In this document: in pieces, positions 5,934 through 39,060 of the stretch
How positions within the stretch are numbered: the first letter of the stretch is position 1
Layout of the letters: every line of letters begins with the position of its first letter
Assembly (NCBI GenBank): GCA_046757645.1
Contig: JBHHYS010000002.1
Location: 1 to 53,709 of the forward strand
Direction of reading: 5' to 3'
Length of the DNA: 53,709 nucleotides
DNA from: Terriglobia bacterium
GTDB taxonomy: Bacteria > Acidobacteriota > Terriglobia > Acidiferrales > 2-02-FULL-67-57
The notes under the pieces: generated by a model
What the model was told of the DNA's origin: nothing
Database searches by the model: none
Seen by the model: the letters and a program-made list of their open reading frames with translations, nothing else
Translations under genes and position numbers: made by a program

Positions 5934-6305
5934 ATGAACCAGAGCTACTTATCCAACTACGCGCCTATTCTCATCCACCTCGTGTTGGTGGCCGGTCTGG
6001 CAGCGGCCATGATGCTGGTTTCCTGGCTGGTGGGCGAACACCGCCCCACCCGAAGCAAACTCACTCCGTATGAGTGCGGTATCCTTCCCACCGGCGACGC
6101 CCGCCAACCCATGGCGGTCAAGTTCTATCTGGTGGCGATGATTTTCATCCTTTTCGATGTGGAAGCGATGTTTCTCTTTCCCTGGGCCGTCATCTACCGG
6201 GAGCTGCGAATGTTCGGGTTCGTCGAGATGTTCCTCTACATCCTGATTTTGCTGGTCGGCTACATCTACTTGTGGAAAAAGGGCGCTCTCGACTGGGGTG
6301 CCTGA
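5934..6305 (+). CDS. nuoA: NADH-quinone oxidoreductase subunit A (operon 1)
   Basis: 123 aa, 3 TM. YECG...FDVE...FLFPWA motifs. Confidence 0.95.
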   Translation: MNQSYLSNYAPILIHLVLVAGLAAAMMLVSWLVGEHRPTRSKLTPYECGILPTGDARQPMAVKFYLVAMIFILFDVEAMFLFPWAVIYRELRMFGFVEMFLYILILLVGYIYLWKKGALDWGA

Positions 6306-6807
6306 GACCGGCCCCAGGCAAAAACTCATGACTACCTCCCCGGGATTGGCCGCACGTCCTGCGGTGCGAAAGCTGCAATCCTTCCACCCCCGCGCGGTGT
6401 CGGCGGCCAGCGAGTTTCGCGGCCAACTGACGGTTGTGACCCCGCCCGAATTGATTCGCGAGGTCTGCGAGTTCCTGCGCAGCGATCCCGAACTGCGGTT
6501 CAACTTTCTGGTGGATATCACCGCTGTGGACCGCTACCCGATCGAGCCCCGATTCGAAGTTGTTTATCACCTGCGCTCCATGACCACCGGGAAGCGCCTG
6601 CGCCTCAAAGCCTTGCTCTCGGGGGATGATCCCCGGATTGATTCGCTCTTCGGACTCTGGCCTGCCGCCGATATGCTGGAACGCGAAGTCTACGACCTCT
6701 TCGGCATTCGCTTCGACGGTCACCCCAACCTGCGCCGCCTGCTGATGCCGGAGGATTGGGAGGGCCATCCCCTGCGCAAGGACTATCCGGTGGAAGGGTA
6801 CCGCTAA
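6298..6807 (+). CDS. nuoC: NADH-quinone oxidoreductase subunit C (operon 1)
   Basis: 169 aa. ...ERE(V)YDLFGIRFDGHP...LRKDYP. GTG 6298 overlaps the nuoA stop (alternative ATG 6328). No nuoB lies between A and C. Confidence 0.9.
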   Translation: MPETGPRQKLMTTSPGLAARPAVRKLQSFHPRAVSAASEFRGQLTVVTPPELIREVCEFLRSDPELRFNFLVDITAVDRYPIEPRFEVVYHLRSMTTGKRLRLKALLSGDDPRIDSLFGLWPAADMLEREVYDLFGIRFDGHPNLRRLLMPEDWEGHPLRKDYPVEGYR

Positions 6808-8003
6808 TGGCAGAGCCGCTCGCCCCGCCTCCCCGCTCCACCGAGACAATGACGCTCAACATGGGGCCGCAGCACCCCTCCACCCATGGCGTCCTCCGGG
6901 TGATTCTTGAACTCGACGGCGAGACCATCGTGCGCGCCACCCCCGATATCGGCTACCTCCACACCGGCATCGAAAAGAACGCCGAGAAGCTCTACTATTC
7001 CCAGGTCATCACCCTCACCGACCGCATCGACTACCTCGCTCCCCTCTCCAACAATCTCGTCTATTGCCTGGCGGTGGAAAAGCTGCTCGACCTGGAGATT
7101 CCTCCCCGGGCCCAATGGATTCGCGTATTGCTCACCGAGTTGACCCGCATCAATAACCACCTGGTCTGGCTCGGCACCACGGGTCTGGAACTGGGGGCCA
7201 TCTCCGTCATGCTCTACTGCTTCCGCGAGCGCGAAGAGATCTTGAACATCTTCGAACTGGTCAGCGGTCAGCGGATGATGACCAGCTACTTTCGCATCGG
7301 GGGCTTGACCCTCGAACCTCCGCTCGAATTCTATGAGCGCGTGAACCGCCTCCTGAAGAGCCTGCCCGGCCGCTTCGACGAATATGAAGACCTCCTCAGT
7401 GAAAACAAGATCTGGCTGGCCCGCACCCGAGGGATCGGGGTCCTCTCCCCCGATGACGCCCTGGCCGGCGGCATCACCGGCCCCAACCTCCGCGCCTCGG
7501 GCATCCCGTTTGACCTCCGCAAGGCAGAGCCCTACTCCAGTTATGAGAATTTCGACTTTGACGTTCCGGTGTGCGCGGAGGGGGACGCCTACGCCCGCTA
7601 TTCCGTCCGCCGGCAGGAAATGCGCCAGAGCCTGCGGATTGCCCGCCAGGCGCTCGACGGCCTTCCCGAAGGGCCGGTGCGCGCCGAAGCGCCCGGCATC
7701 GTCCTCCCCGACCGTGAAAAGATGAAGACCGAGATGGAAGCCCTCATCTACCACTTCAAACTGGTGGTGGACGGCTTCGCCCCGCCGCCCGGCGAGGTGT
7801 ACGTCCCCATCGAGTCGCCCAAGGGTGAGCTGGGCTGCTATCTGGTCAGCGACGGCAGTCCCCGGCCTTGGCGGATGCGCTGGCGTGGCCCCTCCCTGCT
7901 CAATGTGCAAATTCTCTCCAAGCTGCTGCCCGGCCACCTGTTGGCCGACGCGGTCGCCATCATTGCCAGCGTGGATTTCGTGCTGGGAGAGGTGGACCGG
8001 TGA
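6807..8003 (+). CDS. nuoD: NADH-quinone oxidoreductase subunit D (operon 1)
   Basis: Starts at the TAATG overlap with nuo[18 protein letters not shown]... and ends ...DFVLGEVDR. Confidence 0.95.
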   Translation: MAEPLAPPPRSTETMTLNMGPQHPSTHGVLRVILELDGETIVRATPDIGYLHTGIEKNAEKLYYSQVITLTDRIDYLAPLSNNLVYCLAVEKLLDLEIPPRAQWIRVLLTELTRINNHLVWLGTTGLELGAISVMLYCFREREEILNIFELVSGQRMMTSYFRIGGLTLEPPLEFYERVNRLLKSLPGRFDEYEDLLSENKIWLARTRGIGVLSPDDALAGGITGPNLRASGIPFDLRKAEPYSSYENFDFDVPVCAEGDAYARYSVRRQEMRQSLRIARQALDGLPEGPVRAEAPGIVLPDREKMKTEMEALIYHFKLVVDGFAPPPGEVYVPIESPKGELGCYLVSDGSPRPWRMRWRGPSLLNVQILSKLLPGHLLADAVAIIASVDFVLGEVDR

Positions 8004-9826
8004 TGGCGCTGACGCTTTCTCCCCAGCTCCAAAACCGGTTTCAACAACTGAAGCAGCGCTACCCGTCGCAGCGCTCAGCCCTGATCCCCATGCTGCTCTT
8101 TGCCCAGGACGAGTTGGGGTGGGTCTCAGACGAACTCATCGCCTATCTGGCCGCGGAGTTGAGCCTGCGGCGGGTGCAGATCGAGGAAACCGTCGCCTAC
8201 TACTCTATGCTCCGCCGCCAGCCCGCGGGTAAGTACCACCTCCAAGTCTGCACCAATGTGGCCTGTGCGTTGCGGGGCGGGCGGGCCATCCTGGAGCACG
8301 TGCGCCGACGCTGCGGCACTGCTCCGAAGACACCCACAGCGGACGGCATCTTCTCCTACGAGGAGGTCGAATGCATCGGGGCCTGCACCGGGGCGCCGGC
8401 TCTCCAGGTCAACTACGACTACTACGAAAACCTGAGCGTGCGGCAGGTGGATGGGCTGATGAACCAGCTTCGCGCCGGCAAGAAACCCCCACCGGCGCCG
8501 TACACCAGCGGGGTGATCCGGGAAAAGCCCCATCCCGCCGAAGTTCGTGTAATTAGCCGCCGCTTCGGTCTCCCCGACTCGGCCAGCATTGACACCTACT
8601 TGAAGCACGAGGGCTACCAGGGGTTGGAGAAGGCGCTGAAGCAAATGACACCCGAGCAAGTCCTCGAAGAGGTCAAGCGCTCGAACCTTCGCGGCCGGGG
8701 CGGTGCCGGCTTCCCCACCGGGATGAAGTGGGGCTTCGTACCCAAGCACACCGGCAAGCCCAACTACATCATCGCCAACGCCGACGAAAGTGAGCCCGGC
8801 ACCTGCAAAGATCGGCCGCTGATGGAGCTCGACCCTCATCAGCTCATCGAAGGCATCCTGCTCGCCGGCCGCGCTGTCAACGCCCACCGAGGCTTCATCT
8901 ACATTCGCGGCGAATATCGCTCGGTGATGGAAATCCTCGACCGGGCCATCGCCGAAGCCTACGAGCGTGGCTATCTGGGAAAGAACATCCTCGGCTCTGG
9001 CTTTGACTTCGCGCTCTCGACACATACCGGGGCGGGCGCCTACGAGTGCGGGGAGGAAAGTGCCCTGATGGAGTCGCTTGAAGGCAAGCGGGGCTACCCG
9101 CGCATCCGTCCGCCCTTCCCTGCGGTTGTCGGCCTATATGGCTGCCCCACAGTGATCAACAACGTGGAAACGCTGTGCAGCGTCCCCAGCATCATTTTGA
9201 AAGGCGGCGAGTGGTACGCCAGCCTGGGCACTCCCAAGAACGGGGGCACCCGCCTGTTTTGCCTTTCGGGCCATGTGAACCGCCCGGGCGTCTATGAGCT
9301 TCCCATGGGTTTCCCCCTGCGACGCATGATCGAAGAAGTCGCCGGCGGTATGCACAATGGAAAGAAGTGCAAGGCGGTTATCCCGGGAGGCTCATCCGTC
9401 CCGGTGCTCACATCGGAGCAGCTCGACACCCCCATGGACTTCGACGGGGTCGCCCGCGCCGGTTCGATGCTGGGCTCGGGGGCGGTGATGGTGATGGACG
9501 AGGACACCTGCATGGTCGAGATTGCCCGACGGATCATGCACTTCTACGCCCACGAGTCCTGCGGGTGGTGCATCCCCTGCCGGGAAGGCACCGCCTGGCT
9601 GCGCAAGATGCTCGATCGCTTCCACGCCGGCGGCGGCCGCGCCGAGGACATAACCCTGCTGAAGGAATTGTCCCAGAATATGTTGGGGAAAACTTTCTGC
9701 CCGCTCGGCGATGCCGCCGCCATGCCTACCATCAGCTTCGTGGACAAATTCCGCGAGGAATTTGAACAGCACCTGCGCACGGGGGAATGCCCGTTTGCCC
9801 GGGGTGCGGCCCTGGTGGCTCGATAA
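8003..9826 (+). CDS. nuoEF: Fused NADH-quinone oxidoreductase subunits E and F
   Basis: 607 aa from the TGATG overlap with nuoD. NuoE part has the 2Fe-2S Cys set (CTNVAC...CIGAC). A Pro/Lys-rich linker follows. NuoF part has GRGGAGFPTGMKW and CGWCIPC...C. Confidence 0.9.
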   Translation: MALTLSPQLQNRFQQLKQRYPSQRSALIPMLLFAQDELGWVSDELIAYLAAELSLRRVQIEETVAYYSMLRRQPAGKYHLQVCTNVACALRGGRAILEHVRRRCGTAPKTPTADGIFSYEEVECIGACTGAPALQVNYDYYENLSVRQVDGLMNQLRAGKKPPPAPYTSGVIREKPHPAEVRVISRRFGLPDSASIDTYLKHEGYQGLEKALKQMTPEQVLEEVKRSNLRGRGGAGFPTGMKWGFVPKHTGKPNYIIANADESEPGTCKDRPLMELDPHQLIEGILLAGRAVNAHRGFIYIRGEYRSVMEILDRAIAEAYERGYLGKNILGSGFDFALSTHTGAGAYECGEESALMESLEGKRGYPRIRPPFPAVVGLYGCPTVINNVETLCSVPSIILKGGEWYASLGTPKNGGTRLFCLSGHVNRPGVYELPMGFPLRRMIEEVAGGMHNGKKCKAVIPGGSSVPVLTSEQLDTPMDFDGVARAGSMLGSGAVMVMDEDTCMVEIARRIMHFYAHESCGWCIPCREGTAWLRKMLDRFHAGGGRAEDITLLKELSQNMLGKTFCPLGDAAAMPTISFVDKFREEFEQHLRTGECPFARGAALVAR

Positions 9827-9831
9827 ATCCA

Positions 9832-12057
9832 ATGGAGCAGTCGCCACAAACGGTCCAGCTCAGCGTTGACGGACGCCCCATCCAAGTGCCGGCGGGCCGC
9901 TTGCTGATCGAAGCCTGCAAGTCGGCTGGCATCGAGGTCCCCTCTTTTTGCTACTACCCGGGGCTCTCCCTCCAGGGGGCTTGCCGGATGTGCCTGGTGG
10001 AAATTGAGAAGGCGCCCAAGCTGCAGACCGCCTGCACCGTAGTCGCTCAACCCGGGATGGTTGTTCGCACAGATACCCCGAAAGTGCGCGAGGCCCGCAA
10101 GGCAATGCTCGAATTCCTGCTCACCAATCACCCCCTCGATTGCCCGGTGTGCGACAAAGGGGGCGAATGCGAGCTGCAGGACATGGTCTTCCGCTACGGC
10201 GCCGCGGAGAGCCGCTTCGCGGAGGAAAAGGAGCACCAACCCGAGCAGCAGTTTTCCTCCATCGTCTTTTTCGACTATCCACGCTGCATCCTCTGCTTCC
10301 GCTGCGTGCGCGTCTGTGACGAAGCCATGGACGTGAAGGCACTGGGCATCGGGCAGCGGGGCGTCCGCTCCACCATCATCCCCAACCGCTCAGACGGGAC
10401 GCTGGAATGCGAAGAGTGCGGGATGTGCATTGACATCTGCCCGGTGGGTGCGCTCACCAGCCATCAGTACCGCTATAAGACGCGACCCTGGGAGATGAAA
10501 TTCGTCGGCACACCCTGCGCCCACTGTGGCGACGGTTGCAAGACCACGCTCAACATTCGCAATAACGAGATCCTCCGCGGGAATAACCGCGACACCACCG
10601 GTATCAACGGCGAATTCCTCTGCATCAAGGGTCGCTATGCCGGGGACTTCGTTCACCACCCCGAGCGGCTGCGGGAGCCCTTGCTCCGCCGCCACGGCCG
10701 TTTGGAGCCTGTCGGTTGGGGTACGGCGCTAGAGTTCGTGGCCCGCCACCTGCAGGAAATTGCCGAACGGTCGGGCGCCGACCGCATCGGGTTTCTCGGC
10801 AGCAATCGCACCACCAACGAAGAGAACTACTTGCTGCAACGCTTTGCGCGCACGGTGGTGGGCACCAACAACCTCGACCACCATCGCACGGCCGACTACG
10901 CCGCCTTCGTGGCCGCCCTCGGCGGCGACACCACACGCTACGCCACCTCCGGCGATCTGACCCAACCCTCCGCCATTCTTCTGGTGGGTAACGACCCCAC
11001 TCACAATCATCCCTTGCTCGCCTATAACATTCGTACCGCGGTGCGCTTGCACGGCGCTCGCCTTTACATCGTCAACGCTGGTGAGATCAAGCTTCGGCGG
11101 CAGGCCTCCCGGTTCGTTCGGGTTCCGCCCGGCCAAGAAGCCGCCGCGGTAGAAAGCCTGCTGGGCGCGGCCACCGAGGTGGAGGGAGAAACGCAGGAGG
11201 CACTCCACCAACTGCGTGCGGCGCTCGAGAAAGAATCCGATGTAATCATCCTCTTCGGAGCGGAGATCTACGCCCGGGCGATTCGCCAGCTGGTTGAGTT
11301 CGGCAACCGCCTTCCCGGCAAAACCCGCTACATTGCGCTCGGGGATTACACGAACTCCCGCGGTGCCGCCGATATGGGTCTCCTGCCCGACCGTCTGCCC
11401 GGCTACGGCTCGGCGGTTGATCCGGCGGCTCGCACCAAGTGGGAACAACTATGGAAAGCGTCACTGCCGCCAGCCCCCGGCCTGAACGCCCGCCAGATGC
11501 TGCAAGAAGGCAAACTGCGCGCCCTCTACGTGGTCGGCTCCAACCCCGCCAAGACTTTCGCTCTGGAGAACACCCGGGGGGCACTGGGCGGGCTCGAGCT
11601 GCTCGTCGTCCACGAACTGTTTCTCACTGAGACCGCGCAGCTCGCGGATGTAGTCCTGCCTACCGCTTGCGCCTACGAAAAGGAAGGCACCTTCACCAAT
11701 ACTTGTGGCGAACTCCAGCGCTTGAAGCGTGCACTGGACCCCGTGGGAGCGCGCCCTGACTTTGAGATTCTCCGCCTGCTCTCCTATGCGATGGGAAAGC
11801 CCATTGGGCTGCGCACCCCGGAAGCGGCGCTCGAGGAGATTCGACAGCACCTCCCCGGGTACCAGGTTTCCTTGGCCTCACTTGTCGGCGGCCAAGCGAC
11901 GCCCACCGCGCCGAGCGACGCTCGGGCCCCGGTGGAGACACCGGCGGGACTGGTTTTTTCCTCCGACGACTCCCTGTTCACCTCGGGAACCCTGGGTCGC
12001 TTCAGTCAAGCGCTCAATTCAGTTCAGGAGCGCACGCTGCCTCGCTCACAGCTATGA
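9832..12057 (+). CDS. nuoG: NADH-quinone oxidoreductase subunit G
   Basis: 741 aa from ATG 9832. N-terminal 2Fe-2S and 4Fe-4S Cys motifs (CRMC, HPLDCPVCDKGGEC, CILCFRCVRVC) plus a molybdopterin-like domain. Confidence 0.95.
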   Translation: MEQSPQTVQLSVDGRPIQVPAGRLLIEACKSAGIEVPSFCYYPGLSLQGACRMCLVEIEKAPKLQTACTVVAQPGMVVRTDTPKVREARKAMLEFLLTNHPLDCPVCDKGGECELQDMVFRYGAAESRFAEEKEHQPEQQFSSIVFFDYPRCILCFRCVRVCDEAMDVKALGIGQRGVRSTIIPNRSDGTLECEECGMCIDICPVGALTSHQYRYKTRPWEMKFVGTPCAHCGDGCKTTLNIRNNEILRGNNRDTTGINGEFLCIKGRYAGDFVHHPERLREPLLRRHGRLEPVGWGTALEFVARHLQEIAERSGADRIGFLGSNRTTNEENYLLQRFARTVVGTNNLDHHRTADYAAFVAALGGDTTRYATSGDLTQPSAILLVGNDPTHNHPLLAYNIRTAVRLHGARLYIVNAGEIKLRRQASRFVRVPPGQEAAAVESLLGAATEVEGETQEALHQLRAALEKESDVIILFGAEIYARAIRQLVEFGNRLPGKTRYIALGDYTNSRGAADMGLLPDRLPGYGSAVDPAARTKWEQLWKASLPPAPGLNARQMLQEGKLRALYVVGSNPAKTFALENTRGALGGLELLVVHELFLTETAQLADVVLPTACAYEKEGTFTNTCGELQRLKRALDPVGARPDFEILRLLSYAMGKPIGLRTPEAALEEIRQHLPGYQVSLASLVGGQATPTAPSDARAPVETPAGLVFSSDDSLFTSGTLGRFSQALNSVQERTLPRSQL

Positions 12058-13298
12058 CCGACTGGATCGCTCGCCATCCCGACCTGGTCGCTGCGGTGAT
12101 CAAGATTGTCGTGGTGCTTTTTGTGCTGCTCACGGGTGTGGCCTACGCGGTTTGGTTCGAACGCAAGCTCATCGCCCACATCCAGTCCCGCTGGGGACCC
12201 CATCGGGTGGGGCCGCACGGCCTGCTGCAGCCCCTCGCCGACGGCCTGAAGCTATTTTTCAAAGAAGCCGTCATCCCGGCCAACGTCACCAGCCGGTTTA
12301 TTTACGTCCTGGCCCCTTTCCTGGCGCTATCCCTGGCATTGCTCGCCATTGCCGTCATTCCCTTCGGCCCCGGAGAATTCGAGCTGCTCGGCACCCGCAC
12401 CGGCCTCTCCATCGCTGACATCAATATCGGCCTGCTCTTCATCTTGGCGGTGACCTCGCTGGGCGTTTACGCCATTGCCCTGGCTGGTTGGTCGTCAAAC
12501 AGTAAGTATCCCTTGCTCGGCGCCCTGCGCAGTTCCGCGCAGATGGTGAGCTACGAACTGGCGCTGACCTTCTCGGTTATTGGCGTGCTCCTCCTGGCCG
12601 GGACACTTTCGCTGCGTGAGATCGTCACCGCGCAGCAGGGCGACTGGTGGGGCCTCGTGCCCCGGTGGTTCATCTTTCCGCAGTTCGTGGCGTTCATCTG
12701 CTTCTTCATCAGCGGCGTGGCAGAAACCAATCGCTTGCCCTTTGACCTGCCCGAGGCGGAAACCGAGTTGGTGGCCGGCTTCCACACCGAGTACAGCAGT
12801 ATGAAATTCGCCATGTTTTTCATGGCCGAGTATGCCCACATCTTCACCACCTCGCTTCTGGCTGCCATTCTCTTCCTGGGCGGTTGGCTGTCGCCCTTCC
12901 CGGAAAACAGCCTCGCCGAATACCTGCCCGCCGTGCTGGCCGCCGCCCTAGGAGTCGTCTTGCTCTTCGACGTTTTTCGTTTACCTCGCCCCCTGCATCG
13001 CTGGCTCGTCGCTGTCATCGGCCTGGCGCTGTTGGGCGCGAGCCTGCTCCTCACCCAACCAACACTGCTGAAGCTGGCGCAAGGTCCATTTTGGCTCTTA
13101 GCTAAAGCCGCCCTTTTTGTTTTCGTCTTCGTGTGGACACGCGGTACCCTGCCCCGTTTCCGCTACAACCAGTTGATGGCCTTCGGGTGGAAGTTTCTGG
13201 TGCCGCTGGCGGTGCTGAACATTGTCGTCACCAGCTTTGTGGTGGCTGGCGGGGTCAGACACATCATCACGGCGGTGTCGGCCTGGGGAGGCGGTTGA
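12054..13298 (+). CDS. nuoH: NADH-quinone oxidoreductase subunit H (operon 1), with internal two-helix insertion
   Basis: 414 aa with ATGA overlap to nuoG. GPHGLLQPLADGLKL, PFDLPEAETELVAGFHTEYS, PRFRYNQLM. Confidence 0.95.
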   Translation: MTDWIARHPDLVAAVIKIVVVLFVLLTGVAYAVWFERKLIAHIQSRWGPHRVGPHGLLQPLADGLKLFFKEAVIPANVTSRFIYVLAPFLALSLALLAIAVIPFGPGEFELLGTRTGLSIADINIGLLFILAVTSLGVYAIALAGWSSNSKYPLLGALRSSAQMVSYELALTFSVIGVLLLAGTLSLREIVTAQQGDWWGLVPRWFIFPQFVAFICFFISGVAETNRLPFDLPEAETELVAGFHTEYSSMKFAMFFMAEYAHIFTTSLLAAILFLGGWLSPFPENSLAEYLPAVLAAALGVVLLFDVFRLPRPLHRWLVAVIGLALLGASLLLTQPTLLKLAQGPFWLLAKAALFVFVFVWTRGTLPRFRYNQLMAFGWKFLVPLAVLNIVVTSFVVAGGVRHIITAVSAWGGG

Positions 13299-13299
13299 C

Positions 13300-13800
13300 A
13301 TGGGCGCTGAGTACTACCTGTTCTTCGTTTTCGGCGGTCTGGCTGTGCTGGGGGCGCTCAACTTGATCATCCAGCGCCACCCCATCCACAGTGCCCTCTC
13401 GCTGATTCTGGTGATGGGCTCGCTGGCCGTGCTCTACCTCTTGCTGGGCGCCGAGTTCATCGCCGCCATCCAGGTCATCGTCTATGCCGGCGCCATTATG
13501 GTGCTGTTTGTCTTTGTGATTATGCTGCTCAATGTCGGCGAGGAGGAGCGCACCGGCCTGAGCCGCACCGCCAAGTACGTAGGCCTGCCCCTGGCAGCCG
13601 TGCTGTTGGTGGAGACAGCTTACCTGCTCTACCGGGCCTGGCCAGCCGATTCCGTCGTCGAGCCCGACCGCTTCGTTGGCCGGACGGAGCCGATCGGGCA
13701 CCTGCTGTTCAAAGACTTTGTTCTGCCATTCGAGTTGACTTCAATCTTGATCCTCATCGCCATCCTCGGCGCGATCGTGCTGGCGAAAAAGGAACTCTAG
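13300..13800 (+). CDS. nuoJ: NADH-quinone oxidoreductase subunit J (operon 1)
   Basis: ATG 13300 is 1 nt after the nuoH stop, so no nuoI lies between H and J. Typical NuoJ TM pattern. Confidence 0.9.
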   Translation: MGAEYYLFFVFGGLAVLGALNLIIQRHPIHSALSLILVMGSLAVLYLLLGAEFIAAIQVIVYAGAIMVLFVFVIMLLNVGEEERTGLSRTAKYVGLPLAAVLLVETAYLLYRAWPADSVVEPDRFVGRTEPIGHLLFKDFVLPFELTSILILIAILGAIVLAKKEL

Positions 13801-13809
13801 CGAGTTGCC

Positions 13810-14112
13810 ATGGTCCCCATCTCCTACTACCTGGTGCTGAGCGCGATTTTGTTCGGGCTCGGCGTGGTGGGTTTTCTTCTCAGGCGGAGCATTATCACCA
13901 TCTTTATGTCCATCGAGCTGATGCTGAACGCGGTCAACCTGGCCTTCGTCGCCTTCTCCTATGCCTGGCAGGAGTTGAGCGGTCAGGTTTTCGTTTTTTT
14001 CGTGATTGTGGTGGCGGCGGCTGAAGCCACGGTGGGCTTGGCGATCATTATCCTCGTCTTTCGCACCCGCGCGTCACTGAACGTGGAACGGATGAACCTG
14101 ATGAAGTTATAG
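13810..14112 (+). CDS. nuoK: NADH-quinone oxidoreductase subunit K (operon 1)
   Basis: 100 aa, 3 [14 protein letters not shown]...[11 protein letters not shown]. Confidence 0.95.
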
Positions 14113-14116
14113 GGTC

Positions 14117-16090: not shown

Positions 16091-16099
16091 CGGGATGCG

Positions 16100-19077: not shown

Positions 19078-19114
19078 CAAAAAGGACGGGGAAGCCGAAC
19101 CGACGGCTTCCCCG
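19078..19114 (-). terminator. Intrinsic terminator at the convergent nuoN / atpE junction
   Basis: 11-bp perfect stem CGGGGAAGCCG (19087-19097) / CGGCTTCCCCG (19104-19114) with a 6-nt loop. On the minus strand it is followed by TCCTTTTTGTT. On the plus strand it is preceded by an A-tract, so it may act bidirectionally. Confidence 0.7.
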
Positions 19115-19144
19115 CGAATCGGAGGCGCTGATCCCGGTTACGCC

Positions 19145-19483: not shown

Positions 19484-19523
19484 TGTGAGTCTCCTTTGCT
19501 ATGAATTGTCCGCAGTGGGTGGT

Positions 19524-19551
19524 GCCCCGGCCTCCCTCGTACGGCCGGGGC
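19524..19551 (-). other. Intercistronic GC-rich hairpin between atpB and atpE
   Basis: 9-bp perfect stem GCCCCGGCC (19524-19532) / GGCCGGGGC (19543-19551) with a 10-nt loop, inside the 96-nt atpB-atpE spacer. Confidence 0.5.
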
Positions 19552-19579
19552 TCACGCTGACGGACACAATTGCGCGTTA

Positions 19580-20437: not shown

Positions 20438-20839
20438 CTATCTACGCACTTCCAGGAAGATCTGGTAGAAGGCTTCCAACAAAACCGCGACCGCCAGAAG
20501 CAAAACGCCGCTGAGAACGCCCACCGGCGAGAGCGACGAGCGCGAGAAGATAACATAGAGCAGGATTCCAAGCAAGACGAGGGGCAGGAACAACTTCAGG
20601 TAAATGCGCCGGGGGACGCGAGCTTGGCCTGCTCGCACCAGGGCATCCACCACGGCCACGATCCAGCGGTAGTTCAGGTAGGCGAGTCCACCGCCCACGG
20701 CAAAGCCGACCGCCATACGGCCGCCCCACTGCCAGGCCACCAGCGTCGTGCCCAGCGGCACCAGGAGCAATATCATACCGCCCAGGCGGCGCTCGGCCCG
20801 AACGAGAAATTCTCGTTCGTCCCGGGATAGTGCGTTCAC
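20438..20839 (-). CDS. atpI: ATP synthase protein I-like small membrane protein
   Basis: About 133 aa from GTG 20839, which overlaps the atpZ stop (GTGA). Four hydrophobic segments, positioned directly upstream of atpB. The longer ORF to 21031 overlaps atpZ and is unlikely. Confidence 0.6.
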   Translation of the reverse strand: MNALSRDEREFLVRAERRLGGMILLLVPLGTTLVAWQWGGRMAVGFAVGGGLAYLNYRWIVAVVDALVRAGQARVPRRIYLKLFLPLVLLGILLYVIFSRSSLSPVGVLSGVLLLAVAVLLEAFYQIFLEVRR

Positions 20840-21063
20840 CGGTCGTCCAGCCCTTTGAGCTCCCGCAGCAGTTCTCGAAACCCGGCGGCGAATCCCAAAC
20901 CAGATAGAAGCAGGGTGAACAGCGGTTTCGTTCCTAGCTTCCCATCGAGCCACAATCCGACGAACAGCCCCAGGGCGACGGCGGCCACAAAGGTGAACCC
21001 CATCCCCAGGACAAGGCCCAACTGCCGCCACGGGCTGCGCCCCTTCGGTTCTGGCGGGGGCAT
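20836..21063 (-). CDS. atpZ: AtpZ/ATPase_gene1-like small membrane protein
   Basis: 75 aa from ATG 21063 (MPPPEPKGRSPWRQLGLVLGMGFTF...), 2 TM. Starts 10 nt after the nuoN2 stop. Confidence 0.6.
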   Translation of the reverse strand: MPPPEPKGRSPWRQLGLVLGMGFTFVAAVALGLFVGLWLDGKLGTKPLFTLLLSGLGFAAGFRELLRELKGLDDR

Positions 21064-21073
21064 CGAACCACCC

Positions 21074-22525
21074 TTACGGGAAGGGGAGGATGGAGGACTG
21101 AGCGAAGCGGATGAGCGGCTCGGGATAGATGCCGGGGGCGAGGGTGAGCACCAGAGCAATCGCCAGGGTGGCCACCAGGCCGGGCGCCAGCACCATCTTG
21201 CCGGGCTCGCGGGCCTCCTGCATGAACATAACCACTACGATGCGGAAGTAGTAATACAGCGCCACCACCACGTACAAGGCAGCAAACACCGCCAGGTAGT
21301 AGTGTCCGGTCTCGATGAGCGAAAGAAAGATGTAGTACTTCCCATAAAAGCCCACGGTGGGCGGAATACCGGTAAGAGAGAGAAGGAAGATGAGCATGAT
21401 CACGGCCGGGGCGGGGTTCTTGTGCATCAGGCCACGCATATCGTCAATGTTGTCTCCCCGCAGGTCGGCGCGGCGCATGGCGGTCACCACCGCGAAGGCC
21501 CCCAGGGTCATCGCTGCGTAGGCAAAGATGTACACAGCGATTCCGGTTCGCCCCGTCTCGTTGCCCGCCACCAGACCGAGCAGGATGTAGCCCACGTGGC
21601 CGATGGAGGAGTAAGCCAGCAGGCGCTTGATGTTCGACTGATTAATGGCCGCCAGGTTGCCCAGGGTCATAGTGGCTATGGCCACCACGGACAGCAGGAC
21701 AACCCAATGGGCGCGCAGCGGGCCGATGGGAACCAAGAACAGACGCAGCAGCAGGGCGAAGGAGGCAGCCATGGAGGCCACGGAAATGTAGGCGGTGATG
21801 GGGGTGGGCGCGCCCTCGTAGACGTCGGGGGCCCACTGATGGAACGGCACCGCTGCCACCTTGAAAAACAGTCCCGCGGCGACCGCGGCCATGGCCAGGA
21901 AAACGACCGGGTCGTCCAGGCCGCGCTGGCGGACCGCCTCGGCCACCCGGTAGATGCTGGTGGAGCGGCTCACCCCGTAGAGCAAGGAAAAGCCGTAAAC
22001 CAAAATCCCAGTGGAAAACACCCCGAGCAAGAAGTACTTGAGGGCGGCTTCGTTTGAGCGGGGGTCGCGGCGCAGGAAGCCGGCCAGCAGGTAGAAGCAG
22101 ATGGCCATCAGCTCCAAGCCGATGAAGAGCGTGATCAGGTCCACGCCTCCGGCCAGAAACATCATTCCCACAGTGGCAAAGAGAATCAGGGCGTAGTATT
22201 CCCCTTCGTGCTCGGCTTCCGCCTCCAGGTACTTGATCGACATCAGAATCACCAGCGCCGTGGCCAGCAGGAAGATGAAGCTGAAGAAGATGAAAAATGA
22301 GTCCACCACAATCAGGCCATTGAAGGCCAGGGTTTTGTAGCCCCACATTCGCCACAACTGAATTCCGCTGAAGCCGACCCCCACCAAGGCGGTGATGGCG
22401 TTCATAAACTTGTGCCGGGGCTCGAGCAAAAAGTCCATCAGCAGGATGCCACAGGCAAACAAGACCAGCTCGAGCTGGGGCACGATGGCCGTGAAATCTT
22501 CGGGTTGGAAGAACTCACTCCACAT
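21074..22525 (-). CDS. nuoN: NADH-quinone oxidoreductase subunit N (operon 2)
   Basis: 483 aa. FKVAAVPFHQWAPDVYEGAPTPITAY. TGATG overlap with nuoM2. Confidence 0.95.
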   Translation of the reverse strand: MWSEFFQPEDFTAIVPQLELVLFACGILLMDFLLEPRHKFMNAITALVGVGFSGIQLWRMWGYKTLAFNGLIVVDSFFIFFSFIFLLATALVILMSIKYLEAEAEHEGEYYALILFATVGMMFLAGGVDLITLFIGLELMAICFYLLAGFLRRDPRSNEAALKYFLLGVFSTGILVYGFSLLYGVSRSTSIYRVAEAVRQRGLDDPVVFLAMAAVAAGLFFKVAAVPFHQWAPDVYEGAPTPITAYISVASMAASFALLLRLFLVPIGPLRAHWVVLLSVVAIATMTLGNLAAINQSNIKRLLAYSSIGHVGYILLGLVAGNETGRTGIAVYIFAYAAMTLGAFAVVTAMRRADLRGDNIDDMRGLMHKNPAPAVIMLIFLLSLTGIPPTVGFYGKYYIFLSLIETGHYYLAVFAALYVVVALYYYFRIVVVMFMQEAREPGKMVLAPGLVATLAIALVLTLAPGIYPEPLIRFAQSSILPFP

Positions 22526-24147
22526 CAGGGTTCGCTCGGCTCCGGGTGGGTTTCAGGGGTGGTCGCCGGGGGCAAGCGGACCGCCAGAGGAGACGAGGGC
22601 TGTTTTTCGATTCGCTGCACAATCAGCTCCACCGGTTTGTCCAGTATGGCGAAGTAGGGCTTGGGATAGATGCCAATCCAGAAGCACCAGATGACCAGCG
22701 GCACCAGGGTAGCCAGTTCGCGCAGGTTGACATCGCGCAGGGTGCGGTTGAGCGGATTCGTCACCTCGCCGAACATCACCCGCTGATAGAGCCAGAGCAG
22801 ATAGGCCGCACCGAGCACGATGCCCACCACCGCAAAGGCCGCCCACCAAGCGCTCACCTGCCAGGCCCCCAGCAGGATGGTGAACTCCCCGATAAAGCCG
22901 TTCAGCAGCGGCAACCCCAGCGAGGCCAGACTGATGATCAGGTAGATGGTGGCAAAGACGGGCATGGGGGTGGAGAGGCCGCCGAACCCGCTGATTTCCC
23001 GGGTGTGCCGCCGTTCGGAGAGGAGGCCGACGATCAAGAACAGCGCCCCGGTGGAGATGCCGTGGTTCACTTGTTGCAGGAGGCCGCCCGCCAGCCCGGC
23101 ATGATTCATGGCGAAGAGCCCCAGGGTGATGAAGCCCATGTGGGAGACAGAAGAATAGGCGATGAGTCGCTTCATATCCTTCTGCATCATGCACACCAGC
23201 GCCCCGTAAATGATGGCCACCACGGAAAGCGCCATGATGTAGGAAGCGTACTTCAGCGCCGCCGCCGGGAACATGGGCAGCGAGAAGCGCATGAACCCGT
23301 AGGTACCCATCTTCAGCAGCACCCCGGCCAGGATGACCGAGCCGGCGGTGGGGGCGTCCACGTGGGCATCGGGCAACCAAGTGTGGAAGGGCACCATGGG
23401 CACCTTGATGGCAAAGGCAATGAAAAACGCCCAGAAAATCCAGAACTGCCAACCGAAGGGGAGCAGGCGGCCCAGCTCCAGGAAGACAGGCACGCTGAAG
23501 GTGTAAAACTCCGCCGCGGTGTGGCCGGCAATGCCAATGGCCGGGCAGAGGGCACCACTTTCGTGCAGCCCGGCGTGGTAGAAGTACAGGCCCAAGATAC
23601 CGAGCAGGAGGAGTACCGAGCCGAGCAAGGTGTAGAGAAAGAACTTGATGGCCGAATACAGGCGCCGCCCGTGGCCCCAGATGCCGATGATGAAGTACAT
23701 GGGCACCAGCATCACTTCCCAGAACACATAAAAGAGGAAGAAGTCGAGTGCCATAAAGACGCCCAGCATGCCGACCTGGAGCATCAGGAACATCACATAG
23801 TATTCCTTGACGCGTTCCTGAATGGCTGACCAGGAGGAGAGAACGGCGATGAAGCCCAGCACCACGGTGAGCATGATCAGCAACAAGCTGATGCCGTCGA
23901 TGCCCAGCCGGAACTGAGCCCCGATGGAGGGGATCCACTCCTTGGCGATGGTGAATTGGAAGCCCGCCACGCTCCTGTCGTACCAGAAGACCAGGGGCAG
24001 GGAGATCAGCAGGTCGGCAAACAGGAAAAGATTGGCCAGCCAGCGAATGAGGTTCTTTTGGGCGCCGGGGACGAACAGGAGCACCACCGCCCCCAGGAGC
24101 GGAGTGAATAGCACCCAGTTCAGAATGGTTTCCGACGAAAGTCCCAC
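22525..24147 (-). CDS. nuoM: NADH-quinone oxidoreductase subunit M (operon 2)
   Basis: 540 aa. GTG start with AGGTGA SD. AIKVPMVPFHTWLPDAHVDAPTAGSVILAGVLLKMG. Confidence 0.95.
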   Translation of the reverse strand: MGLSSETILNWVLFTPLLGAVVLLFVPGAQKNLIRWLANLFLFADLLISLPLVFWYDRSVAGFQFTIAKEWIPSIGAQFRLGIDGISLLLIMLTVVLGFIAVLSSWSAIQERVKEYYVMFLMLQVGMLGVFMALDFFLFYVFWEVMLVPMYFIIGIWGHGRRLYSAIKFFLYTLLGSVLLLLGILGLYFYHAGLHESGALCPAIGIAGHTAAEFYTFSVPVFLELGRLLPFGWQFWIFWAFFIAFAIKVPMVPFHTWLPDAHVDAPTAGSVILAGVLLKMGTYGFMRFSLPMFPAAALKYASYIMALSVVAIIYGALVCMMQKDMKRLIAYSSVSHMGFITLGLFAMNHAGLAGGLLQQVNHGISTGALFLIVGLLSERRHTREISGFGGLSTPMPVFATIYLIISLASLGLPLLNGFIGEFTILLGAWQVSAWWAAFAVVGIVLGAAYLLWLYQRVMFGEVTNPLNRTLRDVNLRELATLVPLVIWCFWIGIYPKPYFAILDKPVELIVQRIEKQPSSPLAVRLPPATTPETHPEPSEP

Positions 24148-24159
24148 GGTTTCACCTCG

Positions 24160-26238
<2,079 letters not shown>

Positions 26239-26248
26239 CCTCGAGGCC

Positions 26249-26551
26249 TCAGCCCTTCAGCAAGTCAATCTCATCGGCGTTCAGCGTGTCGCGGTTGCGG
26301 AAAAAGGCAATCAAGATTCCCAAGCCCACCGCCGCCTCCGCGGCAGCCACGCTGATGACAAAAATCGCGAAGATTTGGCCTCCTACGTCGGCCAGTTGGC
26401 GGGAAAAAGCCACCAGGTTGACGTTCACCGCGTTCAGGATGAGTTCGAGCGACATCAGGATGATGATGACATTGCGCCGGGTGAGCACGCCGATGATGCC
26501 GATGGTGAGCAGAGCCGCGCTGAGCATCAGGTAGTGCCAGGTGGGAACCAT
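26249..26551 (-). CDS. nuoK: NADH-quinone oxidoreductase subunit K (operon 2)
   Basis: 100 aa. [12 protein letters not shown]...[18 protein letters not shown] upstream. Confidence 0.95.
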
Positions 26552-26560
26552 CGCTTCCTC

Positions 26561-27085
26561 TTACCTCCGCTTGGCCATCAGCACGGCACCGACCATCGCC
26601 ACCAGCAAGAGCAGCGAGACGATCTCGAACGGCAACATATAGCTCTGAAATAGGGTCTGGCCAATCAGCTCGGTGTTCCCCAGGCCGCGGTTGGGGGGCA
26701 AGACTTCAAGGGGCACCTGGGGAAGCGCCGCCTTGCCCCGCCCCAACCCAAAATAGATGGCGCCAAATAACTCCAGCAGCAGCACCCCGGCGGCCAAGCC
26801 GGCCACCTGCCACTGACGGTTGAACTGTACCTGTCGCACCGCCACATCGAGCTTGACCAGCATAATCACGAAGAGAAACAACACCATGATGCCGCCGATG
26901 TAGAGAATGATCTGCACCGCGGCCAGGAACTCGGCGTGTAATTGCACGTAGAGCAGAGCAACCGCCAAGAGCGTCACAATCAGGAAGATGGCGCTGTGCA
27001 CCGGGTTGCGGCGGGTCACCACCAGCACCGCGGACACCACAGCCACAACGGCGAGCACGTAGAAGGTGGCTTGATAGAAGTTCAT
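26561..27085 (-). CDS. nuoJ: NADH-quinone oxidoreductase subunit J (operon 2)
   Basis: 174 aa from ATG 27085 (MNFYQATFYVLAVV...), 7 nt after the nuoH2 stop. No nuoI lies between. Confidence 0.9.
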   Translation of the reverse strand: MNFYQATFYVLAVVAVVSAVLVVTRRNPVHSAIFLIVTLLAVALLYVQLHAEFLAAVQIILYIGGIMVLFLFVIMLVKLDVAVRQVQFNRQWQVAGLAAGVLLLELFGAIYFGLGRGKAALPQVPLEVLPPNRGLGNTELIGQTLFQSYMLPFEIVSLLLLVAMVGAVLMAKRR

Positions 27086-27092
27086 CGGCGTC

Positions 27093-28388
27093 TCACCTTC
27101 GTCCCCGGGCCAGCAGAGCGGCCACCAGGAGGGTAGCGGCCGTCGCCAGCCACAAGCTGGCGGCAAGGTTCCAGCCCAGCTGCTTGCTGAGCACAATCCC
27201 CAGGCCGCAGAAAATCACATTGACGATGGCCACGGGAATCATGAAGTGCCAGCCCAGTCGCATCAGCTGGTCAAAGCGGTAGCGGGGGAAGGTGCCGCGA
27301 AACCAGATGAAGGCGAACAGGAAGACAAACACCTTGCTCATAAACCAGAACACGCCTTGGACGGCGTTGAGCACGGCAGGCATCAGCACCAAGCTCAAGG
27401 CCAGGGCCGCGGCCCCCGCGCCCAGTCCAAGCAAGAGCAAGCGCTGCCAGCGCCACTCGCGCCGGGCGGGGAGGCGAAAGGCTTCCCAGAAGCACCACGC
27501 CGCAGCCGCCACGAAGACGAGCACGGGAACGTAGTCCAAGAAGTCAAAAGCCCGCACTCGAGCGAAAGGTCGCAGCCAGCCACCCAGGAAGAGAGTCACC
27601 GCGATGGCGCTCACCAGGATCATCGCCGCGTACTCAGCCAGGAAAAACAAGGAGAAGCGGAAGCCGCTGTATTCGGTGTGGAAGCCGGCGACCAGCTCCG
27701 ATTCCGCTTCCGGGAGATCGAAGGGGTTGCGGTTGGTTTCGGCGATGGCGGCGACAAACAGGATGAAAAAAGCCACCGGCTGCAAGAAGACAAACCAGAC
27801 ACCTAGGTGTGCCTGGGCTTCGACGAGGCCGCGCATGCTGAGCCGGCCCAGAGTGCCGCTGGTATCGGCGATGCTGGTCAATAGCAAGGCGCTGACAACT
27901 GAGAAGCCCAGTGCCACTTCGTAGCTGACCAGTTGCGCGGTGGAGCGCAACGCCCCCAGCAGCGGGTAGTGGCTGTTGGAGGACCAGCCGCCCAGGATGA
28001 TCCCGAAAATGCCCAGCGAGGAAATTCCCAGGACAAAGAGCAGGCCGACGTTGACGTCGGTAACCATAAAGTTGGACGCGAAAGGTATCAGGGAGAAAGC
28101 GGTGAAAGCGGCGACCACGCTGATGACCGGCGCCAGCCAGAAGATGGTCTTGTCGGCGCCCTGGGGAATGATGTCCTCCTTGAGGAGGAGTTTCAGGCCA
28201 TCGGCAATGGGCTGCAGGAGGCCGTGGGGGCCGACGCGCATGGGCCCCACGCGCACCTGCAGGTCGGCCAGAATCTTCCGCTCGGCATAGGTGAGATAGG
28301 CCATCAGCAGAGAGACGCCGAGAAAAACCACGATGACGCGGATCAGCGGGACCAGGTAGGGCTCGAGGGTGTCCAGCAGGATGGTCAT
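27093..28388 (-). CDS. nuoH: NADH-quinone oxidoreductase subunit H (operon 2), with internal two-helix insertion
   Basis: 431 aa. GPHGLLQPIADGLKL, PFDLPEAESELVAGFHTEYS, PRYRFDQLM. Confidence 0.95.
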   Translation of the reverse strand: MTILLDTLEPYLVPLIRVIVVFLGVSLLMAYLTYAERKILADLQVRVGPMRVGPHGLLQPIADGLKLLLKEDIIPQGADKTIFWLAPVISVVAAFTAFSLIPFASNFMVTDVNVGLLFVLGISSLGIFGIILGGWSSNSHYPLLGALRSTAQLVSYEVALGFSVVSALLLTSIADTSGTLGRLSMRGLVEAQAHLGVWFVFLQPVAFFILFVAAIAETNRNPFDLPEAESELVAGFHTEYSGFRFSLFFLAEYAAMILVSAIAVTLFLGGWLRPFARVRAFDFLDYVPVLVFVAAAAWCFWEAFRLPARREWRWQRLLLLGLGAGAAALALSLVLMPAVLNAVQGVFWFMSKVFVFLFAFIWFRGTFPRYRFDQLMRLGWHFMIPVAIVNVIFCGLGIVLSKQLGWNLAASLWLATAATLLVAALLARGRR

Positions 28389-28397
28389 GGGTCGGTC

Positions 28398-29525
28398 TTA
28401 GCGGTCCACTTCCCCCAGAACGATATCGAGAGTTCCGATAATGGCGACCACGTCCGCCACCAGCTGGCCGCGAACCATCCGGTCAAAGGCTTGCAGGTTG
28501 ACGAAGGAGGGTGGGCGAATACGCAACCGGTAAGGCTGGGTACTGCCGTCGCTGACAATGTAGTAACCCAGCTCCCCCTTGGGGGCTTCGATGGAATGGT
28601 AGACCTCGCCCGGGGGCGGCTTGATGACCTTGCCCACCCGGGCCAGGATCGGTCCTTCCGGAATGGTGTCGATGGCTTGCAGGATGATGCGGCGTGACTG
28701 GCGCATCTCCTCAAGCCGCACCAGGTAGCGGTCGTAGGTATCGCCGCGCTCGCCGATGGGGATATCGAACTCAAACTGGTCGTAGGCCGCGTAGGGAAAG
28801 GCCTTGCGGATGTCCCAGCGCACGCCGGAGCCGCGCAGCACCGGGCCGGTGGCGCCCAGGTCCAGGGCGTCTTCGGGGGTGAGTATGCCGACGTTTCGGG
28901 TGCGTTCGACCCAGATGCGATTTTCGGTCAACAGCTCTTCGTAGTGGTTGATCTTCTCGTCCAAGTCGTGGCAGAAGACCTTCACTTCCTCTTCGAAGCC
29001 ATCGTAGGTTTCATATTGCAGCCCGCCGATGCGGAAGGCGTGGGTGGTCAGGCGAGCCCCGCAGTAGTTTTCGAAGATTTTCAGAATCTCTTCGCGTTCG
29101 CGGAAGGTATAGAAGATGGGGGTCATTGCTCCGATGTCGAGCGCATGCGTGCCCAGCCAGAGCAGGTGGCTGGCAATGCGCTGCAGCTCGGTGAGGATGG
29201 TGCGCACCCAACGCGCCCGGGGCGGGGCTTCCGCGCCCAGGAGTTTTTCCACCGCCTCGCAATAGCCCAGGCCGTTGGAGACGGCGGCGACGTAGTCGGT
29301 GCGGTCCACGTAAGGGGCAAACTGCGGGTAGGAGCGGTTCTCGCCGATCTTCTCCACACCCCGGTGCAAGTAGCCGATAATGCACTCCGAGCCGATCACC
29401 TTCTCGCCGTCGAGCTTCAGCTTCACGCGCAGCACCCCGTGGGTGGCGGGGTGCTGGGGGCCCATGTTGAGGATGATCTCGTCCGCCCCCAGGATGGTGG
29501 TGGTGAGGTCCGAGCGTGGCGCCAT
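28398..29525 (-). CDS. nuoD: NADH-quinone oxidoreductase subunit D (operon 2)
   Basis: 375 aa. [16 protein letters not shown]...[13 protein letters not shown]. By eye roughly half of aligned residues are identical to NuoD of operon 1. Confidence 0.95.
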
Positions 29526-29527
29526 CG

Positions 29528-30154
29528 CTACTGTCCGCTCTCAATCCCCAGGTTTTCTTTTACCCAGTCCGCGTCCTGCTGCAGGATGTCGTAATCCTTG
29601 CGCAGGGGATGGCCTTTCCATTCGTCCGGCAAGAGGATCCGCTTCAAGCCGGGATGGTTCTCGAAGAGGAGGCCAAACATGTCAAAACATTCTCGCTCCA
29701 GCCAGTTCGCCGTGCCCCAGATGCCCGTGAGCGAGGGGCAAGAGGCGCCCACCGGGACTTTCACCCGCAGGCGCTCGTTGTGCAGGAAGGAGTAGAGATT
29801 CAAGATGACGTCGAAGCGCGGGCTGCGCTCGAACCAGTCCACCGCGGTCAAGTCCGTGAGGAAATCAAACTTTTCTTCTTCCTTCAGGTATCGGCAGACG
29901 TCCAGCAAGCGATCCCCGGCGACTCCCACAATCGCCTGTTTGCGGTCCAGGGTGGCCTCGCCAACCGCATCGCCAAAGCGGGCCCGCAGCCGGCGCACCA
30001 GCTCGTTGTCCAGCGGTTCGGGCTGGGGCGGCTGAGGCCGGGCTGGCGGTTTGGGGGCCGCGGCGGGCGCCGGCGGCTTTTTTTCCGCCCCCGGAGTGGC
30101 GGGGGCGGCGGTCTCAGGTTCTTGTTCTTCTTTTTTCTTCTGCTCGTCAGGCAC
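29528..30154 (-). CDS. nuoC: NADH-quinone oxidoreductase subunit C (operon 2) with Pro/Ala/Lys-rich N-terminal extension
   Basis: 208 aa from GTG 30154. Core ...[16 protein letters not shown]...LRKDY. An alternative internal GTG ([10 protein letters not shown]) would remove the extension. Confidence 0.85.
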
Positions 30155-30202
30155 GATGGTGTGTTTGCGGGCAGACCCGGTGGGATTCCGCTGAGAGGGT
30201 CG

Positions 30203-30574
30203 CTAGACCCATTCCAGGGCGCCCTTCTTGTAGAGCCAGATGTAACCCACGAGGAGCATACCGAGAAAGATGACCATTTCGATCAAGGCAAAGAGCCCGA
30301 GCACTCCGTACAGGCTGAAGTATTGAATGGCCCAGGGAAACAGGAAAATAACCTCGACGTCAAAGATGACGAACAAGATGGCAATCACGTAAAAGCGCAC
30401 AGCAAAGCGACCCCGGGCGTCGCCCTCGGGGGGAATGCCACACTCATAGGGCTTGAGGCGGAACCCGGTGTCGCGCATCTCGGGTCGCACCAGCTTGGCC
30501 ATCCAAAGGGTGACGACGGGAAAGAGGAACGCCAGGCCGGCAAAGAGCAGAATGGGGACGTAGTTTTCGGGCAT
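30203..30574 (-). CDS. nuoA: NADH-quinone oxidoreductase subunit A (operon 2)
   Basis: 123 aa. YECG...FDVEVIFLFPWA. Only 48 nt to nuoC2, with no nuoB. Confidence 0.95.
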   Translation of the reverse strand: MPENYVPILLFAGLAFLFPVVTLWMAKLVRPEMRDTGFRLKPYECGIPPEGDARGRFAVRFYVIAILFVIFDVEVIFLFPWAIQYFSLYGVLGLFALIEMVIFLGMLLVGYIWLYKKGALEWV

Positions 30575-39016: not shown

Positions 39017-39060
39017 GCCCAGGCGGCCAGTGGGGCAGCTACCCAGCATCTCCCGCCCGG

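Follow-up and report, generated by a model that had tools for sequence, protein, structure and literature searches.

Two nuo operons without nuoB and nuoI

We analysed a 53,709-nt stretch of DNA from a Terriglobia bacterium (Acidobacteriota; assembly GCA_046757645.1, contig JBHHYS010000002.1, positions 1–53,709; hereafter the window), which carries two paralogous nuo operons for complex I (NDH-1). Pfam scans of every large open reading frame (ORF) between 5934 and 30574 identified operon 1 at 5934–19077 (+ strand), with the order A-C-D-EF-G-H-J-K-L-M-N, and operon 2 at 30574–21074 (− strand), with the order A-C-D-H-J-K-L-M-N. An earlier reading of the letters alone (the sequence-only reading) had given these orders and pointed out that nuoB and nuoI are missing from both, which is borne out by the Pfam calls. 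Relative to the canonical 14-gene nuo/nqo operon (E. coli nuoA-N; T. thermophilus nqo1-14), the subunits present in the window are all orthologous, but no B lies between A and C, no I lies between H and J, and E and F are fused. Paralogous subunits of the two operons are 41–54% identical, consistent with the ancient divergence that had been proposed for them.

The junctions at which the two genes would be expected are closed. In operon 1, nuoA1 (5934–6305; Oxidored_q4, E 3.9e-39) ends with a TGA at 6303–6305 and nuoC1 (6298–6807; Complex1_30kDa, E 1.8e-49) starts with a GTG at 6298, an 8-nt overlap that leaves no space for nuoB. Likewise, the stop codon of nuoH1 (12054–13298; NADHdh, E 2.2e-122) occupies 13296–13298 and the ATG of nuoJ1 (13300–13800; Oxidored_q3) follows at 13300, with 1 nt between them and thus no space for nuoI. 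In operon 2, the stop of nuoA2 (30203–30574; Oxidored_q4, E 1.3e-33) ends at 30203 and nuoC2 (29528–30154) starts with a GTG at 30154, so nuoB has no space in the 48-nt spacer; nuoI has none in the 7 nt between the stop of nuoH2 (27093–28388; NADHdh, E 2e-116), which ends at 27093, and the ATG of nuoJ2 (26561–27085; Oxidored_q3) at 27085. Read directly from the sequence, all four distances are exactly those that had been claimed.

Two further junctions of operon 1 also overlap. The ATG of nuoD1 (6807–8003; Complex1_49kDa, E 1.7e-111; NCBIfam TIGR01962, 552 bits against a cut-off of 459) overlaps the stop of nuoC1 (TAATG), and the ATG of the nuoE-nuoF fusion (8003–9826) overlaps that of nuoD1 (TGATG). 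The fusion is a single ORF with matches to 2Fe-2S_thioredx, Complex1_51K, SLBB and NADH_4Fe-4S, and it passes the NCBIfam cut-offs of both nuoF_fam (634.8, cut-off 558.65) and nuoE_fam (142.9, cut-off 142.4). It is followed by nuoG1 (9787–12057; Fer2_4, NADH-G_4Fe-4S_3, Fer4_Nqo3, Molybdopterin) and, beyond nuoH1 and nuoJ1, by nuoK1 (13810–14112; Oxidored_q2), nuoL1 (14117–16090; Proton_antipo_M, Proton_antipo_N, Proton_antipo_C), nuoM1 (16100–17626; Proton_antipo_M, Oxidored_q5_N) and nuoN1 (17623–19077; Proton_antipo_M). Operon 1 therefore has, of a 14-subunit NDH-1, the membrane subunits A, H and J–N (with Pfam scores far over the gathering scores), the Q-module subunits C and D with their quinone-site residues, and the N-module subunits E, F and G.

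Operon 2 continues from nuoC2, whose Complex1_30kDa match covers residues 78–191 behind an N-terminal extension, with nuoD2 (28398–29525; Complex1_49kDa, E 3.6e-104; TIGR01962, 501.8 versus 459), nuoH2, nuoJ2, nuoK2 (26249–26551; Oxidored_q2), nuoL2 (24160–26238; Proton_antipo_M, Proton_antipo_N, Proton_antipo_C), nuoM2 (22525–24147; Proton_antipo_M) and nuoN2 (21074–22525; Proton_antipo_M). With A, C, D, H and J–N clustered without E, F and G, it has the gene content of an 11-subunit complex I-like enzyme.

Both NuoD copies retain quinone-site motifs. NuoD1 carries the quinone-site motifs GPQHPSTHG and RIDY and is closest, among solved structures, to T. thermophilus Nqo4 (E 6e-130); NuoD2 carries GPQHPATHG and RTDY and is closest to Aquifex NuoCD2 (7q5y_B, E 3.8e-122). 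Because both keep the loop GPQHPxTHG and the xDY tyrosine, both enzymes should need cluster N2, which is carried by NuoB. NuoD2 is 22 aa shorter than NuoD1 and is matched by NuoD profiles in two stretches, pointing to a deletion around residue 300–315; its best NCBIfam model, NF008974, falls slightly below the cut-off (505.8 versus 522). The two NuoH copies are long forms (414 and 431 aa) with about 80 residues inserted relative to the Pfam NADHdh model. Each passes NF004741 (338 and 344, respectively, versus 305), and the best NCBIfam profile of each is NF004743, with 433 positions.

Downstream of operon 2 and co-directional with it lie atpZ, an atpI-like gene, atpB and atpE (19145–21159, − strand; ATPase_gene1, ATP-synt_I, ATP-synt_A, ATP-synt_C), a set confined to F0 genes that converges with operon 1. 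Otherwise, both operons are flanked in the window by unrelated housekeeping genes. Four long ORFs are without a Pfam match: 5179–5844 (−, 221 aa), 36599–38761 (+, 720 aa), 38929–40314 (+, 461 aa) and 49769–52069 (+, 766 aa). They sit in DNA of 63–67% G+C and some may be spurious.

The layout is conserved in Terriglobia

No trace of the two missing genes was found elsewhere in the window. In a six-frame scan, the CxxCxxCxxxCP motif occurred only within NuoG and no ORF joined CCxxE, GxCxxxGG and GCPP. By tblastn, Thermus-like and E. coli NuoB had no match in the window at E ≤ 1, and the Terriglobia orphan NuoB, NuoI-1 and NuoI-2 described below gave only weak matches (E 1e-4 to 1e-3) to the ferredoxin domain of NuoG, at 10246–10500. 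Thus, the earlier statement that no ORF of the window bears a NuoB or NuoI signature holds.

We then surveyed related genomes, taking the best 80 matches per query and inspecting the operon loci with 10 kb flanks. The best genome matches were Acidobacteriota/Terriglobia metagenome-assembled genomes (MAGs), with 83% identity for NuoD1 and 91% for NuoD2. The operon-1 order A-C-D-E/F-G-H-J-K-L-M was kept in the best 80 related Terriglobia loci, with A-to-C gaps of at most 199 nt, and the operon-2 order A-C-D-H-J-K-L-M-N was kept in the best 80 for that operon. In the 160 operon loci, 10 kb flanks included, tblastn detected no NuoB homologue. A motif-based NuoB-like match in one locus (L197) was rejected as a false positive, the protein being DedA-like and membrane-borne.

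Could nuoB and nuoI have been lost by misassembly, or be hidden by frameshifts? We found nothing in favour of such an artefact: the junctions are tight and in register, tblastn shows no remnant, and the same gene orders recur across the 160 loci of independent assemblies, including the long-read chromosomes OZ244973.1, OZ240237.1 and OY969563.1, which excludes misassembly. We regard the chance of an artefact as negligible. As judged from gene order, the layout without nuoB and nuoI is a conserved trait of the class Terriglobia.

Some features of the operons vary among these relatives. The N-terminal extension of NuoC2 differs in length, the protein having 208 aa in the window and 349 aa in the related operon-2 locus L119 (8921–9970), where the extension is Pro/Ala-rich; this extension explains the apparent A-to-C gaps of 200–850 nt in operon-2 relatives. 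A tblastn match to the fused E-F protein comes directly after nuoD in the closest relatives and after a gap of about 500–1400 nt in more distant ones, so the fusion may be limited to a subclade. Genes atpB and atpE follow nuoN2 in 48 of the 66 related loci that extend to nuoN2, a conserved link between the 11-subunit complex I-like operon and genes of the ATP synthase proton channel.

Two stand-alone NuoI paralogues

One operon-2 locus, L119, proved to contain, about 4.3 kb upstream of nuoA2 and amid unrelated and mobile-element-like genes, a NuoI of 151 aa that stands alone. With this protein as seed, a family that we call NuoI-2 was recovered from the best 80 Terriglobia genomes at 74–100% identity. 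These NuoI-2 loci have no nuo neighbours except in L161, which is the same locus as L119, and in L239. Elsewhere NuoI-2 heads a conserved cluster with a galT-like gene, DUF218, bactofilin and methyltransferase genes, and is divergent from tadA. In L239, from a Solibacteraceae MAG, the NuoI-2 type lies within a C2-D2-I-J-K cluster, and NuoI-2 therefore belongs to the operon-2 lineage. Its closest solved structures are mitochondrial TYKY subunits, the Thermus match reaching only E 9e-16. It passes TIGR01971 marginally (115.3 versus 113.05) and no equivalog model, and its two CxxCxxCxxxCP motifs read CIACNLCALACP and CMFCGLCEDACP.

A second stand-alone NuoI, 37% identical to NuoI-2, was found in another locus of the survey (L181). 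Used as seed, this protein (NuoI-1) recovered homologues from the best 80 Terriglobia genomes at 64–100% identity, including the window's two closest relatives, JACZYA01 and CAYTXK01. Apart from NuoI-2 in L243, these NuoI-1 loci have no further nuo gene within 10 kb. The closest solved structures of NuoI-1 are T. thermophilus Nqo9 (E 2.8e-45) and M. smegmatis NuoI; being closest to Thermus Nqo9, as NuoD1 is to Nqo4, NuoI-1 is matched with operon 1. It passes both the NF004537 equivalog (179.5 versus 163) and TIGR01971 (136.9 versus 113.05), and it has the two motifs CVACFLCAAACP and CIFCGYCVEACP.

The two paralogues occupy separate loci in at least 10 assemblies, as given by the overlap of the two best-80 lists. 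The sequence-only reading had also proposed a nuoB/nuoI module; however, no NuoB homologue was found within 10 kb of the 160 NuoI loci, so an adjacent module of this kind was not seen in Terriglobia. On these sequence comparisons, relatives of the window organism have two orphan NuoI paralogues, one per operon.

In MAGs labelled Solibacteraceae and Bryobacteraceae, NuoI-1 already stands alone. NuoI-2 is still in its cluster in the Solibacteraceae MAG, a hint that it was excised separately in the lineage with A-C-D-H-J operons. In subdivision-3 (Solibacter-like) genomes, the operon-2-type cluster is rearranged to C-D-I-J-K-L-M-N (L239, 8300–11400; SbA3 and SbA4 in PMC6018796 Table S2b), with nuoA and nuoB elsewhere and, in SbA3, nuoH after nuoN.

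Stand-alone NuoB

A protein-database search with Thermus Nqo6 returned Deinococcota only, the same query had no acidobacterial match among plasmids, and an orphan NuoB query had none among viral contigs. A metagenome scan with a Thermus Nqo6-type query was examined at its best 80 NuoB loci, ranked by similarity to Thermus. Most were canonical A-B-C-D operons, but 17 of the 80, with 56–63% G+C, had neither nuoA nor nuoC nearby despite adequate flanks. The orphan proteins (179–181 aa) are 65–72% identical to the Thermus-like query, and all 17 contain the N2-binding cysteine motifs GLACCAIEMM, MGACATSGG and VPGCPPRPE. Orphan NuoB passes NF005012 (259 versus 116) and TIGR01957 (243.9 versus 142.7). 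A database search with one of the orphans gave matches named Ca. Acidiferrales/Acidoferrales by NCBI, the best 120 of which are 85–98% identical to the query. Thus, as had been suggested for both genes, relatives encode canonical stand-alone NuoB and NuoI far from the operons.

On long contigs, the orphan nuoB is a single gene among unrelated flanking genes. Its convergent neighbours are a PagL gene and a GCV_T/YgfZ-like gene (L403–L408, − strand, just downstream). The GCV_T gene has a weak match to the CAF17 C-terminal barrel (YgfZ/IBA57-like) and neighbours nuoB in 10 of 20 loci that were compared; the YgfZ/IBA57-like family is linked to 4Fe-4S protein maturation. In two of these loci (L403 and L404), cytochrome oxidase genes lie within 10 kb of nuoB. 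Two N-terminal variants of the orphan NuoB were considered as possible paralogues; this was rejected because both have the GCV_T neighbour, which makes them orthologues.

Other NuoB loci fell outside this group. Two short contigs with NuoB and without nuoA or nuoC nearby (L326, 2092–2640; L332, 1639–2187) were rejected as a second Terriglobia NuoB because their homologues are named Methylomirabilales/NC10; displacement of nuoB may thus occur outside Acidobacteriota too. The only adjacent nuoB-nuoI module seen is an orphan pair on the metagenome contig FWWL01010265.1 (L352, 1737–2911), flanked by ADH, AbiEii, SLT and polyprenyl synthase, with a NuoI 48% identical to NuoI-1; this contig was not placed in any lineage. 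A short high-G+C metagenome contig (L402, 664–2033) carries nuoA-nuoB followed by a second nuoA-like gene.

These orphans bear on another explanation of the gap, namely that one or both operons have lost or altered their function, working without NuoB and NuoI, with another iron-sulphur (Fe-S) protein or in a different job. Such replacement or decay would fit the absence of either gene within 10 kb of the 160 operon loci, save for the NuoI-2 gene of L119, and it would fit operon 2, which has no NuoEFG and is linked to atp genes. We consider it very unlikely. Canonical NuoB and NuoI orphans that pass family cut-offs occur throughout the lineage and keep all cluster-binding cysteines, which also speaks against the non-canonical replacements that the sequence-only reading had entertained; the quinone-site His and Tyr motifs are retained in both NuoD copies; the genes encode intact subunits, each conserved throughout the class; and operon-1-type genes are transcribed in A. 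capsulatum (PMC11636273).

Published gene tables

The layout is already on record in published tables, although neither of the two studies concerned remarks on it. Hausmann et al. 2018 (PMC6018796) wrote of their peatland Acidobacteria MAGs that all "harbour one or more nuoACDHJKLMN operons", with nuoEFG included in one of these operons, and in their Table S2b nuoB and nuoI are on other scaffolds than the "nuoACD(EFG)HJKLMN" operons. These MAGs are like the window in phylum and class (subdivision 1 = Terriglobia), in gene orders, in having one operon per genome with nuoEFG and others without, and in the location of nuoB and nuoI on other scaffolds. The window differs from them in its nuoE-nuoF fusion and in that its two operons converge around atp F0 genes. 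The study tabulates genes and is silent on the absence of B and I from the operons, on the two NuoI paralogues and on their pairing.

Numbers of orphan genes in that table roughly follow the numbers of operons. SbA1 (subdivision 1, 96% complete) has three A-C-D operons without B and I, three orphan nuoB and two orphan nuoI; SbA5 has one such operon, one orphan nuoB and one orphan nuoI, plus a 2M-type cluster that includes B and I; SbA4 has two orphan nuoB and one orphan nuoI; SbA3 has two orphan nuoB; and SbA7 has three B/I-less operons, one orphan nuoB and three orphan nuoI.

In A. capsulatum, the NDH-I genes ACP_0296–0284 are transcribed, and the nuoB and nuoI rows are blank (PMC11636273, Table S3): ACP_0296 is A, 0295 is C, 0294 is D, 0292–0290 are E/F/G, 0289 is H and 0288–0284 are J–N. 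The authors' term for this set is 'whole nuoA-N operon', and the gap goes unmentioned. As in the window, atpE and atpB (ACP_0283/0282) adjoin nuoN, away from the other listed atp genes, ACP_1030–1033. Unlike in the window, the second complex I of A. capsulatum is of the 2M type, with nuoB and nuoI in the cluster (ACP_2565–2573), and not an A-C-D-H-J-K-L-M-N operon.

More generally, complex I-like enzymes of 11 subunits without NuoEFG are known, and operon 2 resembles them in having no N-module. Dispersed ndh/nuo genes are known too, from the cyanobacterial ndh loci and from Rhodothermus marinus, in which nqo8 and nqo9 lie apart. The Terriglobia differ from those dispersed-gene systems in that one and the same pair of Fe-S subunit genes has moved out of two, sometimes three, paralogous operons, each gene to a single-gene locus of its own.

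How are NuoB and NuoI supplied?

The explanation that we favour, and consider probable, is that the window encodes two isozymes of complex I and that dispersed single-gene units supply NuoB and NuoI to both. Isozyme 1 would be an NADH:quinone oxidoreductase of 14 subunits that includes the NuoE-NuoF fusion. Isozyme 2 would have 11 subunits and lack the NuoEFG module, which oxidises NADH; its operon runs on into atpZ-atpI-atpB-atpE. NuoB carries cluster N2 and NuoI carries N6a/N6b, and both isozymes, which by their sequences are standard complex I in all subunits tested, would need the two proteins. Each orphan unit would apparently have its own promoter, and the products would join the complex after translation, pairing with one or the other set of subunits presumably through paralogue-specific protein contacts. 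The window organism probably carries the same orphans as its relatives, and the two to three orphan nuoB per MAG in the tables of PMC6018796 suggest a second NuoB dedicated to operon 2. Independent transcription of the orphans is suggested by promoter-like upstream k-mers, specific to each gene set, that contain TTGACA or extended −10 elements such as TGTGnTAGGAT and TGTGAGAAAAT. A shared regulatory motif was looked for upstream of nuoA1, nuoA2, nuoI-1, nuoI-2 and nuoB, but no 8-mer reached 20% of the sequences in as many as three of these sets.

Several points weigh against this explanation: (i) the window organism's own nuoB and nuoI were not recovered; (ii) among the best-80 lists, no single assembly was seen with both operons and both NuoI paralogues; (iii) the Thermus-ranked scan recovered just one orthologous group of Terriglobia orphan NuoB, a ranking by which a more divergent NuoB-2 would have been missed; (iv) the evidence for a dedicated operon-2 NuoB consists of published gene counts, not sequences; and (v) that for separate promoters consists of conserved −35 or extended −10-like k-mers only.

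Alternatively, one trans-encoded NuoB, perhaps with one NuoI, could serve both isozymes, forming hybrid Q-modules on two membrane arms, as the sequence-only reading had preferred. The single orthologous group of orphan NuoB would agree with such sharing, as would SbA7 with its three B-less operons and one nuoB, and the 85–98% identity within the best 120 NuoB matches could reflect constraint from several partners. However, conservation of this degree is weak evidence by itself, since NuoB generally exceeds the other complex I subunits in conservation, and a search ranked by similarity to Thermus is blind to divergent paralogues. The counts in other MAGs also disagree with sharing, SbA1 having as many orphan nuoB as B-less operons and SbA4 and SbA3 two each. 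For NuoI, the shared module fails: the two paralogues are 37% identical, occur together in at least 10 assemblies and are each tied to one operon lineage. The sequence-only reading had taken distinct B/I pairs matching the operons as a point against sharing; such matching was found for NuoI but not for NuoB, for which it is inferred from table counts. Overall, we consider a shared module improbable, sharing of NuoB being doubtful and NuoI not being shared.

Why would both Fe-S genes have been displaced? By a simple count, a second 11-gene operon would lose the same pair at random in about 1 of 55 cases. As for the selective reason behind the layout, separate control of NuoB and NuoI is a guess. 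A bolder and improbable proposal is that the displacement is adaptive: the orphans would act as separately regulated assembly checkpoints, responding for instance to iron, Fe-S supply or oxygen, and NuoB would perhaps be interchangeable, so that the cell could choose its active membrane arm after transcription.

Implications

The finding, as it stands, is an ordinary and tidy lineage-specific gene layout. Because relatives encode NuoB and NuoI as ordinary stand-alone genes, the gap reflects a lineage-wide layout and not loss or replacement. In practice, these bacteria, which are abundant in soil, can be annotated as lacking part of complex I by automated pathway calls and even in curated tables, or the gap can go unnoticed; the blank nuoB and nuoI entries for a "whole" operon in the A. 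capsulatum study are a case in point. Reconstructions of this kind can be corrected by taking into account dispersed B and I genes and a paralogue-specific NuoI. The layout also raises an evolutionary question, since, within one class, a single pair of Fe-S subunit genes has gone from two or three independent operons. If the orphans do turn out to be regulatory or shared, this would bear on how complex I isozymes are assembled.

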